Source of the DNA: a phage
Length of the DNA stretch: 64,000 nucleotides
Sequence record: PZ452610.1
Strand: one strand, 5' to 3'
Shown here: positions 1,069 through 14,580 of the stretch, piece by piece
Layout: the number at the start of each line of letters is the position of its first letter
How positions within the stretch are numbered: position 1 is the stretch's first letter
Notes under the pieces: generated by a model
Databases searched by the model: none
What the model was told of the DNA's origin: nothing
The model's input: the letters and a program-made list of their open reading frames with translations, nothing else
Made by a program: the position numbers and the translations under genes

Positions 1069-3051
1069 ATGTCACTTCTCTCTCCGGGCGTTGAGCTCAA
1101 AGAAACTACCGTACAGAGTACTGTAGTTAATAACTCCACTGGTACTGCTGCCCTGGCTGGAAAATTCCAATGGGGCCCTGCATTCCAGATTAAACAAATC
1201 ACTGATGAAGTTGCATTAGTTGATATGTTTGGTACTCCTAATACGGATACAGCAGATTATTTCATGTCTGCTATGAACTTCCTTCAATATGGTAATGACC
1301 TTCGTGTTGTACGCGCAGTTGACCGTGATACTGCTAAGAACTCATCTCCTGTAGCAGGCAATATTGAATTCACAATCTCTGCTGCTGGTAGTAACTATGC
1401 AGTTGGTGATAAAATTATCGTTAAGTATTTGACCGAAACTGTTGAAGCAGATGGTTATGTCACTTCGGTTGATGTCGATGGTAAAATTCTTAACATTTAT
1501 ATCCCAACCGGTAAAATTATTGCTCGTGCAAAAGAAATTAATGAATATCCGGCATTGGGTTCTAACTGGACCGCCGAAGTTGCCAGTTCTTCTTCTGGAC
1601 TTTCTGGCGTTATTACAATTGGTTCTATCGTAACCGATTCGGGTATTCTGTTAACTGAAGTTGAAACTTCTGAAGAAGCTATTACTTCTCTAACTTTCCA
1701 AGAATCTATTAAAAAATATGGTGTCCCAGGCGTAGTTGCTCTTTATCCTGGTGAACTTGGCGACCAGCTCGAAATTGAAATCGTATCTAAAGCAGACTAC
1801 GACAAAGGTGCTTCAGCCCAGTTAAAAATTTATCCTGATGGTGGTACTCGCGCATCTACTGCTAAAGCAATCTTTGGGTATGGCCCACAAACTGATGACC
1901 AATATGCAATTATAGTTCGTCGTAACGATGCTGTAGTTCAGAGCGTAGTTCTTTCTACTAAACGTGGTGAACGCGATATTTATGGTAGTAATATCTTTAT
2001 TGATGATTTCTTTGCTAAAGGTGCAAGCAATTATATTTTCGCTACTGCACAAGGTTGGCCAAAAGGTTTCTCTGGCGTAATCAAACTGGGTGGTGGCTTA
2101 TCATCTAATGAAACGGTTGACGCTGGTGATTTAATGGAAGCTTGGGATTTGTTTGCTGACCGCGAATCTGTTAATGCGCAGTTGTTTATTGCCGGTTCTT
2201 GTGCAGGTGAATCTTTAGAAGTTGCTTCTACAGTTCAGAAACATGTTGTAGCAATTGGTGATTCTCGCCAAGATTGCTTGGTTCTTTGCTCACCACCACG
2301 TTCAACTATAGTCGGTATTCCTGTTAATCGTGCAGTTGATAATCTGGTTGATTGGCGTACTGCATCAGGAACTTACACTGATAATAACTTTAATGTAAGT
2401 TCTACTTATGCTGCTATTGACGGTAACTATAAATATCAATATGACAAATATAATGACGTGAATCGTTGGGTTCCGTTAGCTGCTGATATTGCAGGTCTTT
2501 GTGCCCGTACAGACAATATTTCTCAGCCTTGGATGTCTCCGGCCGGTTATAACCGTGGACAAATTCTTAACGTTATTAAGCTTGCAATTGAAACTCGTCA
2601 ACCACAACGTGATCGTTTGTATCAGGAAGCTATTAACCCTGTTACTGGTACCGGCGGTGACGGATATGTTCTGTATGGTGATAAAACTGCCACTTCCGTT
2701 CCTTCACCATTTGACCGTATTAACGTTCGTCGTTTGTTCAATATGGTTAAAACGAACATTGGTTCAGCATCTAAATATCGCCTGTTTGAATTGAACAACG
2801 CATTTACCCGTTCTTCTTTCCGTACAGAGACTTCTCAATATCTACAGGGTATTAAAGCTCTCGGTGGTGTATATAACTTTAAAGTTGTTTGTGATACTAC
2901 CAATAACACCCCAGCAGTTATCGACCGTAATGAATTTGTAGCTACTTTCTACTTACAACCTGCCCGCTCGATAAATTATATTACGTTGAACTTTGTAGCA
3001 ACAGCAACTGGTGCCGATTTCGACGAACTGATTGGTGCTGTAGGTGGTTAA
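1069..3051 (+). CDS. 18: tail sheath protein gp18
   Basis: 660-aa ORF; near-identical in recognisable stretches to T4 gp18 (MSLLSPGVELKETTVQSTVVNN...); TATAAATA and SD GAGGA upstream. Confidence 0.97.
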   Translation: MSLLSPGVELKETTVQSTVVNNSTGTAALAGKFQWGPAFQIKQITDEVALVDMFGTPNTDTADYFMSAMNFLQYGNDLRVVRAVDRDTAKNSSPVAGNIEFTISAAGSNYAVGDKIIVKYLTETVEADGYVTSVDVDGKILNIYIPTGKIIARAKEINEYPALGSNWTAEVASSSSGLSGVITIGSIVTDSGILLTEVETSEEAITSLTFQESIKKYGVPGVVALYPGELGDQLEIEIVSKADYDKGASAQLKIYPDGGTRASTAKAIFGYGPQTDDQYAIIVRRNDAVVQSVVLSTKRGERDIYGSNIFIDDFFAKGASNYIFATAQGWPKGFSGVIKLGGGLSSNETVDAGDLMEAWDLFADRESVNAQLFIAGSCAGESLEVASTVQKHVVAIGDSRQDCLVLCSPPRSTIVGIPVNRAVDNLVDWRTASGTYTDNNFNVSSTYAAIDGNYKYQYDKYNDVNRWVPLAADIAGLCARTDNISQPWMSPAGYNRGQILNVIKLAIETRQPQRDRLYQEAINPVTGTGGDGYVLYGDKTATSVPSPFDRINVRRLFNMVKTNIGSASKYRLFELNNAFTRSSFRTETSQYLQGIKALGGVYNFKVVCDTTNNTPAVIDRNEFVATFYLQPARSINYITLNFVATATGADFDELIGAVGG

Positions 3052-3083
3052 TAAGACGCCTGATGGGCTATTTCGGTAGCCCA

Positions 3084-3091
3084 TATAAATA
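3084..3091 (+). promoter_or_regulatory. late promoter (TATAAATA) for gene 19
   Basis: Exact TATAAATA in the 18-19 intergenic region. Confidence 0.6.
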
Positions 3092-3163
3092 TACTATATC
3101 GTTTAAAAATTAATTCTATGGGCATCAGGTTAATCCTAAGCCCATATTACTACAGAGGCTAAT

Positions 3164-3655
3164 ATGTTTGTAGATGACGTAACTCGTGCCTTCGAATCTG
3201 GTGATTTCGCTCGCCCTAACCTGTTCGAAGTAGAAATCTCTTATCTTGGGCAAAACTTTAGCTTCCAGTGTCGTGCTACGGCTCTTCCTGCTGCGATCGT
3301 TGAAAAGGTTCCTGTTTCTTATATGAACCGTAAAATTAATGTGGCTGGTGACCGTACATTCGATGATTGGACTATTACAGTAATGAACGACGATGCTCAT
3401 AGCATTCGTCAGAAATTTGTTGATTGGCAAGGTATTGCAGCAGGACAAGGTAATGAAATTACCGGTGGTAAACCTGCTGAATATAAAAAGACTGCTATCG
3501 TTCGTCAATTTGCTCGTGATGCTAAAACGGTCACTAAAGAAGTTGAAATTGTCGGCTTGTGGCCTACTAACGTTGGTGAAGTATCTCTTGACTGGGACAG
3601 TAATAACGAGATTGAAACGTTCGAAGTAACTCTTGCTCTTGATTGGTGGGAATAA
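3164..3655 (+). CDS. 19: tail tube protein gp19
   Basis: 163-aa ORF directly after gene 18, T4 gp19 length and sequence pattern; late promoter at 3084-3091. Confidence 0.93.
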   Translation: MFVDDVTRAFESGDFARPNLFEVEISYLGQNFSFQCRATALPAAIVEKVPVSYMNRKINVAGDRTFDDWTITVMNDDAHSIRQKFVDWQGIAAGQGNEITGGKPAEYKKTAIVRQFARDAKTVTKEVEIVGLWPTNVGEVSLDWDSNNEIETFEVTLALDWWE

Positions 3656-3703
3656 TCTGGTTGGGGAGAAATCCCCAGCTTCCCGTGATGACGGAGAAGT
3701 CCA

Positions 3704-3711
3704 TATAAATA
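3704..3711 (+). promoter_or_regulatory. late promoter (TATAAATA) for gene 20
   Basis: Exact TATAAATA about 30 nt upstream of the gene 20 ATG. Confidence 0.65.
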
Positions 3712-3739
3712 TAACTATAATTCCCATTCGGAGAATACA

Positions 3740-5311
3740 ATGAAATTTAATATCTTAAGTTTGTTTGCTCCATGGGCAAAAATGGACGAACGTGATTACA
3801 AAGACCAAGAAAAAGAAAATTTAGAATCGATCACCGCACCAAAATTAGACGACGGCGCTAAAGAATACGAAGTATCTGAAAATGAAGCACAGCAAACATA
3901 TAATGCTATGTTTCAGAGAATGTTCGGTAGCCAAGAACCAGGGCTCAAATCAACGCGTGAATTAATCGATACGTATCGAAATTTGATGACGAACTATGAA
4001 GTGGATAATGCAGTCTCTGAAATAGTTTCCGATGCTATCGTATATGAAGATGATACAGAAGTCGTTTCTATAAATTTAGACAACACAAAATTTAGTCCAA
4101 ATATCAAATCAATGATGTTGGATGAATTTAACGAAGTGTTAAATCATTTATCTTTCCAACGTAAAGGTTCAGACCATTTTAGACGTTGGTACGTAGATTC
4201 TCGAATTTTCTTCCATAAAATTATTGACCCTAAACGCCCTAAAGAAGGTATTAAAGAGCTTCGTCGTTTAGACCCACGTCAAGTTCAATATGTCCGTGAA
4301 GTTATTACAACCACTGAAGCTGGTGTTAAAATAGTCAAGGGTTATAAAGAATATTTCATTTATGACACATCACACGAATCTTATGCTTGTGATGGTCGCA
4401 TATATGAAGCTGGCACAAAAATAAAAATCCCTAAAGCCGCGATTGTTTATGCCCATTCTGGTTTAGTTGATTGTTGTGGTAAAAATATCATTGGTTATTT
4501 GCATCGGGCTATTAAGCCGGCGAACCAATTAAAACTTCTTGAAGATGCAGTCGTAATTTATCGTATTACTCGTGCTCCCGATCGTCGTGTATGGTACGTT
4601 GATACAGGTAATATGCCTTCAAGAAAAGCAGCAGAACATATGCAACATGTTATGAATACGATGAAAAACCGTATTGCATATGATGCTACTACAGGCAAGA
4701 TTAAAAACCAGCAGCATATTATGTCGATGACCGAAGATTATTGGTTACAACGACGTGATGGTAAAGCAGTAACAGAAGTTGATACATTACCAGGTGCAGA
4801 TAATACCGGAAATATGGAAGATGTACGTTGGTTCCGTAATGCGCTTTATATGGCTTTACGTATTCCTATTACCCGTATTCCAAGTGACCAAGGTGGTATA
4901 CAGTTTGATGCTGGTACTTCTATTACACGAGATGAATTATCATTTGGTAAATTTATTCGTGAGCTGCAACATAAATTTGAAGAGATATTCCTAGACCCGC
5001 TTAAAACTAATTTAATTCTTAAAGGAATTATTACAGAAGATGAGTGGAATGATGAAATAAATAATATTAAGATAAAATTTCATCGGGATAGTTATTTCTC
5101 GGAATTAAAGGATGCTGAGATTCTGGAGCGTCGCATTAATATGCTTCAGATGGCCGAACCATTTATTGGTAAATATATTTCTCACAGAACAGCTATGAAA
5201 GATATTCTTCAGATGTCTGACGAGGAAATTGAACAAGAGGCTAAGCAAATTGAAGAAGAGTCGAAAGAGGCTCGTTTCCAAGACCCCGACCAAGAACAAG
5301 AGGATTTTTAA
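3740..5311 (+). CDS. 20: portal vertex protein gp20
   Basis: 523-aa ORF at the T4 gene 20 position; late promoter at 3704-3711; SD GGAGA. Confidence 0.95.
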
Positions 5312-10774: not shown

Positions 10775-11773
10775 TTATGATACTAATTCAATCCATGCAG
10801 GACGCAGAACATCTTGCACCATTCGGACTAATTCTTTCTTAACAAGATTCGGATTATCGGATGATGTTAATACAATACCTTCACGAGAAGTTTCTTCCAG
10901 AATATCTTGAACAGTCAATCCCATCACTTTGCCAAAATCTTTTGGCGTTACAGTCCCAATCTTAGAAATCACATTATTAACACGGTTTAATGTAACATAA
11001 CAAGCTAGGACATCAAGCAAGTTTTTGTCAATTTCGGTTAATGGAACCTGAGTTTTAATAGGCTTATCAGACTTTTTCTTTTCACTGAATTTAGAGTTCT
11101 TACACTTAATAGCTACACGAGTACCGTTTGGCAGCCATTTAGGGAAACAAGGCTTCAGAACATAACCTTCTGCTGTATTATCACCAATAACATTAGCATC
11201 AAATACGCAATTATTTGCTTCGACAAGGTCTTCTGACGCAGTAGCATTATAAGCGGCTAAGACGGAATCAAGGTCGTTTGGAATCATGATAAGAGCATCA
11301 AATGTGCCACGACCAAGCATTGGTGCCATTTTAAAACCGAATTCATTACAGAAATCTTGCATTTCGTAATCAGTCAAATACGTATTATCACCACTTTCTG
11401 TATTGATAATGATATCGAACACATAAAAATCTTTTTCACCGTAGTCAACACCTTTCTGGATTCCACCACCAGCGAATTCACCGAATACTTGATATGATAC
11501 GGCTCGAGCTGTGTACATGAATTCCTGAACGGCTTTAATAGCTTTATCATACTTCTTGAGTACGATTTCATAACCATAAAAATCTTCTGCTGGAAGAATA
11601 GGGCCTGTGCGCTTGGCGCATGTGACGTTGTCACGTTCAATAATTAAACTAAAGTTGGTCCCATGGATTTTCTCACGTGCTACCCAAACACCAGTAGTCA
11701 AACCATTAGTGTAGAGTTTTTCAATAAACTTAGAGTTGTAGTGGTTTTCAAGACTGCTGTATTTCTTAAACAT
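10775..11773 (-). CDS. rnlB: RNA ligase 2 (RnlB)
   Basis: 332-aa ORF; nucleotidyltransferase lysine motif KIHGTN; matches T4 Rnl2 N- and C-terminal sequence as recalled. Confidence 0.9.
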
Positions 11774-12401: not shown

Positions 12402-12431
12402 TTAAAAACGAAGAAAGGGGCCGAAGCCCCT
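12402..12431 (-). terminator. intrinsic terminator after hoc
   Basis: AGGGGC-CGAA-GCCCCT hairpin with U-rich tract on the minus strand, 6 nt after the hoc stop. Confidence 0.65.
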
Positions 12432-12436
12432 TACGA

Positions 12437-13852
12437 TTATGGATATGTATAGATGATACCAGTTTCTAAAGCAGTTTTATGGATGATGTATCCATTACGT
12501 GATTCTTGAACATCAACTTCTGGATAGTCTTTCATCATCTTCTGAAGAGTGTAACGATGCAGGTAGTATTTACTATCTGGATCGTCAATTTTCCAATCTT
12601 TACCTTCTTCAGTCATTTTTTGTATTTCATCCATAACCCACCAACCGCACCAGATGTAAGCTGAAGTACGATGTGGAAGAGGATGAACATAAGGTAATTC
12701 ACCTTCTGGTTCAATTGGAGTCCGTTCAGCAATAACAACTTCAGCGGTTGAACTAATTGTCTTTGAAGTATAATTATCTTTAGTTAATACTGCTTCAACT
12801 TTAATTGTATGAGTACCCGCTGAGGAGGTATCAATACTGTAAGTATTGGTAGAATTACTTTCTGCTACGTTGTCTTTCTTCCAAGAATATACAATATTAG
12901 TATCACCTGGAGCACCAGTAACAGATGCTGTTAAAGTTGCAGTTCCACCAACAGTAGTATTAACTGATGGCGGAGATAAAGAAATGGTGGCACTATTAAA
13001 TGTCGCATTATTAGTTACTACTGTTGCTTCTGCTGAAATTTCTTTTGTAACATAATCTGTTGCAGAAACAGATACGGTGCATTTAAGAGTTTTACTTCCG
13101 ACCTCGGTTGGAGTGAATTTATACGTAGCAGAAGTTGCATCCGGAATATTACTGTCATCCATTGACCACTGGAATGATGTAGTAGCACCTGGAGGTGCAC
13201 TAGAGACATTTGCAGTTAAAGTAATAGGAACACCAAAGACCGTAGTCGGAGACTCAGGCGTAATTTTTAGTGTTGAAGAATTAGCCTTTTTATTTACAGT
13301 CAAAGAAACCGCTGATGATTCTACTGTTTTATCAACGTAATCAGTTGCAGTCACTGTGACAGAACAAGTTATAGACTTAGTTCCTTCGGATGTTGGTATA
13401 TATTCAAAGGTTGATTGCTTTTGACCATCAACAGCGACCCCGTCAACTTTCCATGTATAAGCAATAGCAGCACCACTAGGTTGATTGCTTACATTAGCAG
13501 TGAATGTTGTTGCTGTTCCAATTTCTACTGCCGCCGGAGAAGCCGGAGTAACAGCGACGGTAGAATTATTTTCTTTCTTATTAACAGTGATAGTTGTTGA
13601 CGCTTCAGCTATTTCCGGATCTCCTGCGGAAAGTGTATTAGTTGCAACCACTTTAATTTTTTTTGTTCCTGCTGGAGAAGCAAGAGTATAATCCATTGTA
13701 GCAGCCGTAGAATCCTGTGCTATATCATCTACAGTCCAGACGTATGTAATAGTACCATCCGGAGTTTCACCTGCAGGTGTAGCAGTGAATGTTTGTGAAC
13801 CTCCAATAACCCCTGTAGGAGTTATTGGAGATAACGTGACAGTGAATGTCAT
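12437..13852 (-). CDS. hoc: head outer capsid protein Hoc, with four Ig-like modules
   Basis: 471-aa ORF; N-terminus and C-terminal capsid-binding segment (ELPYVHPLPHR...GIIYTYP) match T4 Hoc; four internal ~90-aa Thr/Ser-rich repeats. Confidence 0.9.
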   Translation of the reverse strand: MTFTVTLSPITPTGVIGGSQTFTATPAGETPDGTITYVWTVDDIAQDSTAATMDYTLASPAGTKKIKVVATNTLSAGDPEIAEASTTITVNKKENNSTVAVTPASPAAVEIGTATTFTANVSNQPSGAAIAYTWKVDGVAVDGQKQSTFEYIPTSEGTKSITCSVTVTATDYVDKTVESSAVSLTVNKKANSSTLKITPESPTTVFGVPITLTANVSSAPPGATTSFQWSMDDSNIPDATSATYKFTPTEVGSKTLKCTVSVSATDYVTKEISAEATVVTNNATFNSATISLSPPSVNTTVGGTATLTASVTGAPGDTNIVYSWKKDNVAESNSTNTYSIDTSSAGTHTIKVEAVLTKDNYTSKTISSTAEVVIAERTPIEPEGELPYVHPLPHRTSAYIWCGWWVMDEIQKMTEEGKDWKIDDPDSKYYLHRYTLQKMMKDYPEVDVQESRNGYIIHKTALETGIIYTYP

Positions 13853-13861
13853 AAGTTATCC

Positions 13862-14530
13862 TTATTTTAATGTTATGAAAGAAGAATTACGAGTTTCACG
13901 AATTAGAACTGATCCGTCGCGATTAATATAATAAATTAAGCTAAATAATGTTTGGTGAGCAGAAGCATGTACAAAACTAGTTGGGCGAGATTTCCAATCT
14001 GGGGTTTCGGCTATCCATTGATAAATCCACCAAGGAACAGTAACATACCCTGGGCCTTTGCCTAATTTAATGAGTGTAGGACTAAAATTTTCAGGCAGAA
14101 CAAATTTTACTTCTTTATTTACCTCTGACTCAGGCTCTTTTTCAGATTCAACAACCTGAGTAATTGCTTCTTCGAATTTATCATGGTCGAATTCTTTTTC
14201 TTGTTCGACAACTTCTAATACTTCAACTTGTTCTGTTGGAGAATCAAACAACAGAATAGCTTCTTCTTTAACTTCTTCGTTGGTGAAATTAACACCATCC
14301 ACATCATCTGCGGCAGTAATTAAATCAGTGATAGATAATCCATCAGTTTCAGGTAATGGTTCATCAGCCAGTGCGTTAAGAGCTTCTTCGATATCAATAA
14401 CAATATTATCGAATGATTTTGTTTTCTTAACACTAATGCCAAATTGTTTCGCATATTCGAACAGTTTAGCTTTGGCTTCCTTTTTATCAGAAAGAGCACG
14501 TAACTCTTCAATATAGTCTTTATCGATCAT
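13862..14530 (-). CDS. inh: prohead protease inhibitor Inh
   Basis: 222-aa ORF directly upstream of hoc, length and position as T4 inh. Confidence 0.8.
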   Translation of the reverse strand: MIDKDYIEELRALSDKKEAKAKLFEYAKQFGISVKKTKSFDNIVIDIEEALNALADEPLPETDGLSITDLITAADDVDGVNFTNEEVKEEAILLFDSPTEQVEVLEVVEQEKEFDHDKFEEAITQVVESEKEPESEVNKEVKFVLPENFSPTLIKLGKGPGYVTVPWWIYQWIAETPDWKSRPTSFVHASAHQTLFSLIYYINRDGSVLIRETRNSSFITLK

Positions 14531-14553
14531 GGTATTTCCTCATTATAAATATA

Positions 14554-14561
14554 ACTATATT
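14554..14561 (+). promoter_or_regulatory. late promoter (TATAAATA) for uvsW
   Basis: Exact TATAAATA about 20 nt upstream of the uvsW ATG. Confidence 0.6.
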
Positions 14562-14580
14562 TATTACATGGTAATTTGAC

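Follow-up and report, generated by a model that had tools for sequence, protein, structure and literature searches.

How many Ig-like modules does the Hoc protein of this phage carry, and where would an extra one have come from? The DNA that we analyzed (the window, 64,000 nt of a phage, sequence record PZ452610.1) contains an open reading frame that an earlier note, made from the letters alone, had read as a Hoc of 471 aa with four tandem Ig-like modules. The ORF listing and the T4 chain in the PDB agree with the two lengths that it gave, 471 aa against 376 aa for T4 Hoc. We examined the locus, the modules, the relationship of the protein to other Hoc proteins, and the DNA of related genomes.

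The hoc gene and its allele

The gene and its putative expression signals were placed as follows.

12437..13852, minus strand: hoc CDS, RB69-type allele; 471 aa plus stop, ATG start, uninterrupted (ORF listing)
13859..13863, minus strand: Shine-Dalgarno-like AAGGA, a candidate read from the sequence; its end lies 6 nt ahead of the hoc ATG, and it overlaps the inh stop
12415..12432, minus strand: terminator-like, GC-rich hairpin AAGGGGCTTCGGCCCCTT followed by a T-run, a pattern match in a consensus scan; it starts 5 nt past the hoc stop

Directly upstream of hoc is inh (13862-14530), with uvsW divergent from 14581 (ORF listing and RB69 annotation), and downstream are 24.3, 24.2 and rnlB (10775-11773). 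This order (rnlB, 24.2, 24.3, hoc, inh, uvsW) is the T4 order, and the position of hoc between inh and 24.3, where a Hoc gene belongs, agrees with the annotations of RB69, T6 and APCEc01. As in RB69, the hoc start codon lies 9 nt past the inh stop. An exact T4-type late promoter, TATAAATA, was absent from the minus strand of the inh-uvsW interval; the sole relative there was AATAAATA at 14558-14565.

The product matched PHROG 1149, 'Hoc-like head decoration' (E 1.5e-137), and T4 Hoc (E 6.5e-142, phmmer against PDB sequences). Its computed pI is 4.72, against 4.74 for T4 Hoc, and thus in the acidic range (pI ~4-5) of Hoc proteins; a pI of 4.72 is also listed for RB69 Hoc (PMC10385173 supplement). 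In family, genome position and acidic pI the window protein is like T4 Hoc (376 aa; 5VF3, 8T1X, 8T9R).

Judged by its sequence, the window gene is the RB69 allele of hoc. RB69 Hoc (NP_861884.1, RB69p194, NC_004928/AY303349) is also 471 aa long, has a matching neighborhood and 98% DNA identity, and differs from the window Hoc by 12 amino acids, all of them point substitutions. Identity to the hoc DNA of E. coli O157 typing phages 3, 6 and 13 was 100%. A single match spanned at least 80% of hoc in 31 phage records and, among the matches listed, 29 records from many laboratories matched the 1416-nt ORF over its full length at 95-100% identity. Because the full-length ORF recurs across records at this identity, the long hoc ORF is not a sequencing artefact.

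A four-Ig RB69 allele and variation in Hoc domain number are correct observations, but they are already known and ordinary. The RB69 reference record NC_004928 annotates a 471-aa Hoc, and the RB69 hoc sequence has presumably been public since about 2003. The extra domain in RB69 Hoc was reportedly noted by Sathaliyawala in 2010 and Fokine in 2011; these likeliest sources were outside the reach of our literature search, which found no wording of the RB69 Hoc domain count. Four-Ig and five-Ig forms were common among the homologues that we collected, and the Ig domains of Hoc proteins number from 1 to as many as 10 (Fokine et al. 2023, PMC10385173). What is added here is a module-level description of the allele, its distinctness from duplication of the type annotated in RB30, and DNA-level support for reassortment at linkers. 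Module-level reassortment and the frozen anchor segment described below are the sole points that are perhaps worth more work.

Four Ig-like modules and a capsid-binding domain

The protein divides into five parts; the type letters are those of the clustering described in the next section.

13571..13852, minus strand: Ig-like module 1 (m1), aa 1-94, type B, distal fibre tip; 63% identical to T4 domain 1; all-beta, pLDDT 88-95
13283..13570, minus strand: Ig-like module 2 (m2), aa 95-190, type D; RB69-type counterpart of T4 domain 2 (54% identical), ending in 'SLTVNKK'
12998..13282, minus strand: Ig-like module 3 (m3), aa 191-285, type E; without a T4 Hoc counterpart, lying in the T4 alignment gap
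12710..12997, minus strand: Ig-like module 4 (m4), aa 286-381, type F; RB69-type counterpart of T4 domain 3 (42% identical)
12440..12709, minus strand: C-terminal domain, capsid-binding, aa 382-471; shares 88 of 90 residues with T4 Hoc 287-376

In the phmmer alignment, window residues 1-191 correspond to T4 Hoc 1-191 and residues 289-471 to T4 194-376, colinear and in frame on both sides. The gap between them means that about 97 residues (roughly 192-288), equal to one module, are extra in the window Hoc. We then compared the modules with one another. Module-to-module local alignments gave z values of 10.7 to 26 (200 shuffles), with 26 for m3 against m2 and 10.7-14.6 for m3 against the other modules, while modules against the C-terminal domain gave only 0.3-4.6. 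Serine plus threonine made up 28-34% of the modules (34% of m3) and 10% of the C-terminal domain. The four Thr/Ser-rich repeats that the earlier note had put at ~90 aa are thus real, at ~95 aa each. The signature '...ATDYV / TKDNYT...', which the earlier note had assigned to each repeat, is present in m2, m3 and m4 and absent from m1. At the protein level m3 shows 40% identity with T4 domain 2 and 39% with m2.

We also counted modules in 120 homologues using an HMM built from the four modules of the window, a count that is circular for the window Hoc itself but not for the other proteins. Proteins of 375-379 aa had three modules, those of 468-472 aa had four, and those of 567-570 aa had five in every case, so that module number tracks length in just the comparison of Hoc lengths that the earlier note had proposed.

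Domain prediction gave a mixed result. The whole protein scored above the Pfam cut-offs for Ig_3, PKD, Ig_2, I-set and PKD_3, but of the modules taken singly only m2 passed (PKD, scoring 26.1 bits where the cut-off is 23.5). By itself m3 was under every Pfam gathering threshold (Big_7 21.3 against 24.1, PKD_4 20.2 against 27, Ig_2 19.4 against 27), m4 gave sub-threshold Ig_3 and I-set hits, and m1 gave zero Pfam hits. Since only m2 passes singly, HMM domain prediction alone is equivocal.

The predicted structures settle the Ig-like nature of the modules. AlphaFold2, run on the whole protein with a 34-sequence alignment, returned four all-beta units with pLDDT of 86-96 per 10-residue block over residues 1-370 (mostly 86-93 for m4, over 286-370) and 78 for residues 371-380. 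The best Foldseek matches in the PDB were four-Ig structures, namely Dscam1 Ig1-4 (E 5.5e-15), ICAM-5 D1-D4 and Sidekick Ig1-4. When m3 was modeled by itself, AlphaFold gave seven strands with a pLDDT of 92.4, and Foldseek aligned this model with 7BIZ Ig-like, MALT1 Ig C2, CD146, Dscam1 and ColG PKD domains at query-normalised TM values of 0.55-0.78; phage-decoration Ig domains also superposed on it. The three N-terminal Ig domains in the crystal structure of RB49 Hoc (3SHS), which matched the window model with a Foldseek E of 3.9e-11 at ~15% sequence identity, are experimental proof of Ig-like modules in a Hoc.

The T4 gap, the length counts, the whole-protein AlphaFold and Foldseek results and the stand-alone model of m3 together support four tandem Ig-like modules in the window Hoc, one beyond the three of T4, as had been claimed. 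The contrary reading, that linker or low-complexity sequence makes up the extra ~95 residues, or that they belong to an ORF fused by a sequencing frameshift, and that there are really three Ig domains, has next to no chance of being right: m3 is indeed Ser/Thr-rich (34% S+T) and by itself under all Pfam gathering thresholds, but the T4 alignment (in frame on either side of the gap), the recurrence of an ORF of equal length at 95-100% in 29 records among the matches listed, and the AlphaFold models refute it, for m3 aligns with its fellow modules at the z values above and folds as a seven-strand beta-sandwich (pLDDT 92-96) with Ig and PKD neighbors at TM up to 0.78. Both failings that the earlier note had foreseen for its own claim, extra length in linkers only and a frameshift artefact, are answered by the folded m3 (pLDDT 92.4) and by those 29 records, respectively.

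The note had also taken both ends of the protein to be conserved and capsid-binding. This holds for the C-terminal end, where the domain is 98% identical in the window and T4 proteins, and not for the N-terminal end, which is 63% identical and not capsid-binding. Capsid binding is by the Hoc C-terminal domain only, the N-terminal module being the distal tip in a linear model (PMC10385173). T4 Hoc residues Y293, H295, R300, W309 and W310, which are capsid contacts or conserved (Fokine 2023, PMC10385173), correspond in the phmmer alignment to window Y388, H390, R395, W404 and W405, all identical. On the strength of 88/90 residues shared with T4, including these contact residues, the window C-terminal domain is predicted to be the capsid anchor. 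The same 98% domain identity suggests that the window Hoc is a monomer at gp23 hexamer centres and dispensable for growth. The AlphaFold model of this domain is unreliable, with pLDDT below 56, a likely result of the near-invariance of the alignment in this region.

The counterpart modules of the three-Ig T4 Hoc and the four-Ig window Hoc are 63, 54 and 42% identical. The window Hoc is therefore a distinct allele, B-D-E-F, in which every Ig module differs from that of T4, rather than the T4 protein lengthened by one module.

Origin of the fourth module

We clustered 413 modules from 121 Hoc proteins into six types (A-F). The following arrangements were found.

B-A-C: 375-376 aa, n=78
B-A-A-C: 468-472 aa, n=29
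B-A-A-A-C: 568-570 aa, n=8
B-D-E-F (window, RB69 cluster): 471 aa, n=2
B-A-D-E-F: 567 aa, n=1
A-E-F: 379 aa, n=1
B-D-C: 376 aa, n=1
B-A-D-C: 472 aa, n=1

A fourth module could have arisen by recent in-place tandem duplication of m2, as is annotated for RB30. RB30 Hoc (AAM52483.1, AY101183; 472 aa, B-A-A-C) resembles the window Hoc in having four Ig-like modules and a capsid-binding domain, and the record AY101183 states that in RB30 hoc an 'intragenic repeat led to appearance of additional immunoglobulin-like domain'. Such duplication is real and common, since B-A-A-C and B-A-A-A-C together account for 38 of 120 homologues, and m2 is the best partner of m3 within the protein (z 26), both belonging to the middle PKD-like class. 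The extra domain of RB30, a recent tandem copy of T4-type domain 2, is still 76% identical to its neighbor in DNA and 81% in protein, whereas m2 and m3 share 39% in protein and 56% in DNA, the latter being the shuffle expectation (56% +/- 3). Adjacent near-identical DNA copies, the mark of the RB30 type, are thus lacking from m2/m3, and Tandem Repeats Finder detected no tandem repeat in the window hoc. The window Hoc differs from RB30 also in the type of its last Ig module. In mean identity E is slightly nearer to A (42%) than to D (37%), D and A being 52% identical, and E always travels with F in the mosaic proteins. We consider a recent duplication of m2 very unlikely.

The other source to be weighed lies outside Hoc: E, or E and F together, could have been captured from some other Ig-repeat protein, for instance an adhesin of a bacterium or a different structural protein of a phage. 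Ig-like domains are said, after work by Fraser et al. in 2006, to be promiscuous among phage structural proteins. An exhaustive search of representative proteins with E-F brought up giant proteins with Ig repeats by the thousand, with 2497 matches at E <= 0.001. These matches were generic, only 25-39% identical, with scores inflated by 10-28 repeats, and the search yielded no donor for E-F. The closest kin of both modules were Hoc modules instead: outside the RB69-type allele, E was nearest to Hoc A modules (up to about 47%) and F to Hoc module C (44-48%). In a tblastn search of 50,697 phage records with m3, 31 records matched at 90% identity or more and none at 60-90%. Capture from outside Hoc is accordingly improbable.

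The preferred reading is that m3 is a paralogue, old and diverged, of the middle PKD-like modules and not a recent duplicate. Since E is nearer to A than to D, and D is 52% identical to A, E would have split off before A and D separated from each other. An ancient duplication may be the ultimate source of the fourth module. In every sampled protein E was accompanied by a following F. We hold with high confidence that the gene belongs to an RB69-like Mosigvirus and is hoc (highly immunogenic outer capsid protein), encoding a four-Ig fibre in which m3 is an old paralogue, and that it is a recombinational allele.

Other Hoc variants likewise combine a conserved capsid anchor with a variable number of Ig domains: Serratia phage Muldoon (1174 aa, 10 Ig), PG7 (1 Ig), PhiPNJ-9 (2 Ig) and Klebsiella phage PMBT63 (an extra Ig) (PMC10385173, PMC11853027, PMC13435897). 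These four differ from the window Hoc in module number and in sequence, and none of them carries the RB69 allele.

Reassortment at linkers and the capsid-surface string

Every mosaic junction among the Hoc proteins fell at the linker '(S/T)(L/I)TVNKK'. We located the DNA breakpoints in related genomes with flanks 96-98% identical, and these were at nucleotides 265, 567 and 1141 of hoc. A metagenomic Mosigvirus contig encoding B-A-D-E-F (L005) matches the window hoc at 97.7% from nt 265 (aa 89, in the first TVNKK linker) to the end. A second one, encoding B-D-C (L006), matches nt 1-567 at 97.1%, ending at K189 of SLTVNKK, and resumes at nt 1141, where the coding sequence of the capsid-binding domain begins. 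The Mosigvirus APCEc01, which has a T4-type Hoc of 376 aa, is ~97% identical to the window until the last inh codons, 55-80% identical from the hoc start, and 97% identical again from nt 1141. Between APCEc01 and the window the whole Ig string is thus swapped, from the end of inh to the capsid-binding domain. From this breakpoint pattern, the window has E-F where the three-Ig Mosigvirus allele B-D-C has C.

It would follow that Mosigvirus and Tequatrovirus share several circulating module combinations, the window allele being one of them, and that homologous recombination reassorts these combinations, breaking at the conserved linkers and where the capsid-binding domain begins. This model draws on four mosaic proteins, with DNA-level comparison for two of them (P0002, P0011) and for APCEc01.

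Between the window (Mosigvirus) and T6 (Tequatrovirus), the capsid-binding domain is encoded by 270 nt that share 98.1% identity. Among codons for the same amino acid, 3 of 88 (3%) differ between the two phages in this segment, while in inh, 24.3, 24.2 and rnlB 36-56% differ, at nucleotide identities of 58-73%. By megablast, the best match was 95-99% identical in 611 of 655 matching records and consisted in nearly all of them of this segment alone, as a 276-nt piece (27 of 60 among the matches listed).

Silent-site conservation of the capsid-binding segment goes beyond what protein-level selection alone would give. We considered an RNA element in the segment and rejected it as a distinguishing explanation: the fold z of the segment was -3.5, yet variable parts of hoc gave -3.8 and -4.05, and an Rfam search of the segment returned chance-level hits only. 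Recurrent recombination, with the capsid-binding segment as its anchor, is the simplest reading, though not a proven one.

A broader proposal, which we put forward tentatively and with some doubt, is that the Ig string of Hoc is a set of exchangeable adhesin cassettes, reassorted at linkers and joined to a shared anchor segment, in which E-F is a distinct two-module unit with its own ligand. The whole string would extend from the end of inh to the segment coding for the capsid-binding domain. If this is true, the shared anchor lets Mosigvirus and Tequatrovirus phages trade capsid-surface specificities.

The product of the window gene would be a monomeric decoration fibre of four Ig-like beta-sandwich modules followed by a capsid-binding domain of ~90 residues, the domain that in T4 plugs into the centre of each gp23 hexamer. 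Our picture of Hoc function draws on PMC10385173, PMC11853027 and PMC7602432. T4 carries 155 Hoc fibres, which are about 180 Å long and acidic and have little effect on capsid stability; T4 Hoc aids dispersion, and its Ig-like domains bind bacterial and mucosal surfaces (PMC10385173, PMC7602432). By analogy, the Ig string on the capsid surface probably serves weak, reversible adhesion to glycans of mucus or cell surfaces and the dispersal of particles.

The fourth module should make the fibre ~40-45 Å longer (180 Å divided by four domains) and provide one more potential binding surface, where a straight, longer fibre is an assumption because the inter-domain geometry of the model (pTM 0.52) is unreliable. 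Changed adhesion, which the earlier note had also raised, is a reasonable expectation from the extra module. When the mucus adherence of T4-like phages is explained, Hoc is the phage protein invoked most often, and it is a widely used display scaffold; for this reason the allele carried by a therapeutic or typing phage may affect mucosal retention and immunogenicity.

In domain 2 of PhiPNJ-9 Hoc, S183-L184-T185 bind fucosylated MUC2 (PMC11853027). SLT is kept at residues 183-185 of the window Hoc, in the 'SLTVNKK' of m2, and so falls within the linker motif that also serves as a recombination junction.

Exchange of Hoc Ig modules

Breakpoints were compared between window 12713-13855 and three Mosigvirus sequences, namely APCEc01 (L003), which carries a 376-aa T4-type Hoc, and two metagenomic contigs (L005 and L006) with the Hoc architectures B-A-D-E-F and B-D-C. 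We observed that the Hoc Ig string is swapped, either whole or by single modules, between Mosigvirus genomes whose flanks are 94-98% identical. The DNA breakpoints coincided with the hoc start, with the TVNKK linkers (hoc nt 265 and nt 567) and with nt 1141.

In domain 2 of PhiPNJ-9 Hoc, the triad S183-L184-T185 was reported as MUC2-binding (PMC11853027). The window Hoc keeps this triad (at about 13298-13306), which sits within the linker motif "SLTVNKK", also a site of recombination junctions.

Four Hoc homologues in the retrieved set of 120 (P0021, P0064, P0005 and P0020) were filed under bacterial organisms and under odd protein names, namely "endonuclease [Shigella sonnei]", "endonuclease [Bacillus cereus]" and "PKD domain-containing protein [Escherichia coli]". 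These labels suggest phage contamination of bacterial assemblies, together with misannotation.

The capsid-binding segment

The 3' end of hoc (12437-12720), which encodes the capsid-binding domain, forms a sharp island of ~98% DNA identity with Tequatrovirus phages, including T6. Against T6, only 3 of 88 codons for the same amino acid differed, the corresponding values for the flanking genes being 36-56%; the DNA identity of those genes in the same comparison was 58-73%. Among the 655 phage records with a match, the majority matched the capsid-binding piece at 95-99%. RNA structure was checked as a reason for this DNA conservation, and the signal was not distinctive.

The AlphaFold2 model of the window Hoc (m44e16fb4fc38) did not capture the capsid-binding domain successfully, with pLDDT values of 33-56 across residues 381-471, even though this domain is 98% identical to one with a solved structure. 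The low pLDDT is likely due to the 34-sequence alignment, which is nearly invariant over that part.

The T6 locus and the uvsW-inh spacer

In the T6 record (L002, NC_054907), the annotation divides hoc (2645-3776) between two CDS that overlap, 2645-3130 and 3111-3776, which indicates a frameshift, whether real or a sequencing error. Between its uvsW and inh genes, T6 also has a homing-endonuclease gene (L002 1288-1905), whereas the window has none there, the gap being only 50 nt (14531-14580). Two short sequences were noted within this spacer:

14544-14551, plus strand, TATAAATA
14558-14565, minus strand, AATAAATA

Exact TATAAATA sites numbered 20 in the whole window, with 7.1 +/- 2.6 expected from shuffles, an excess compatible with T4-type late promoters occurring throughout this stretch.
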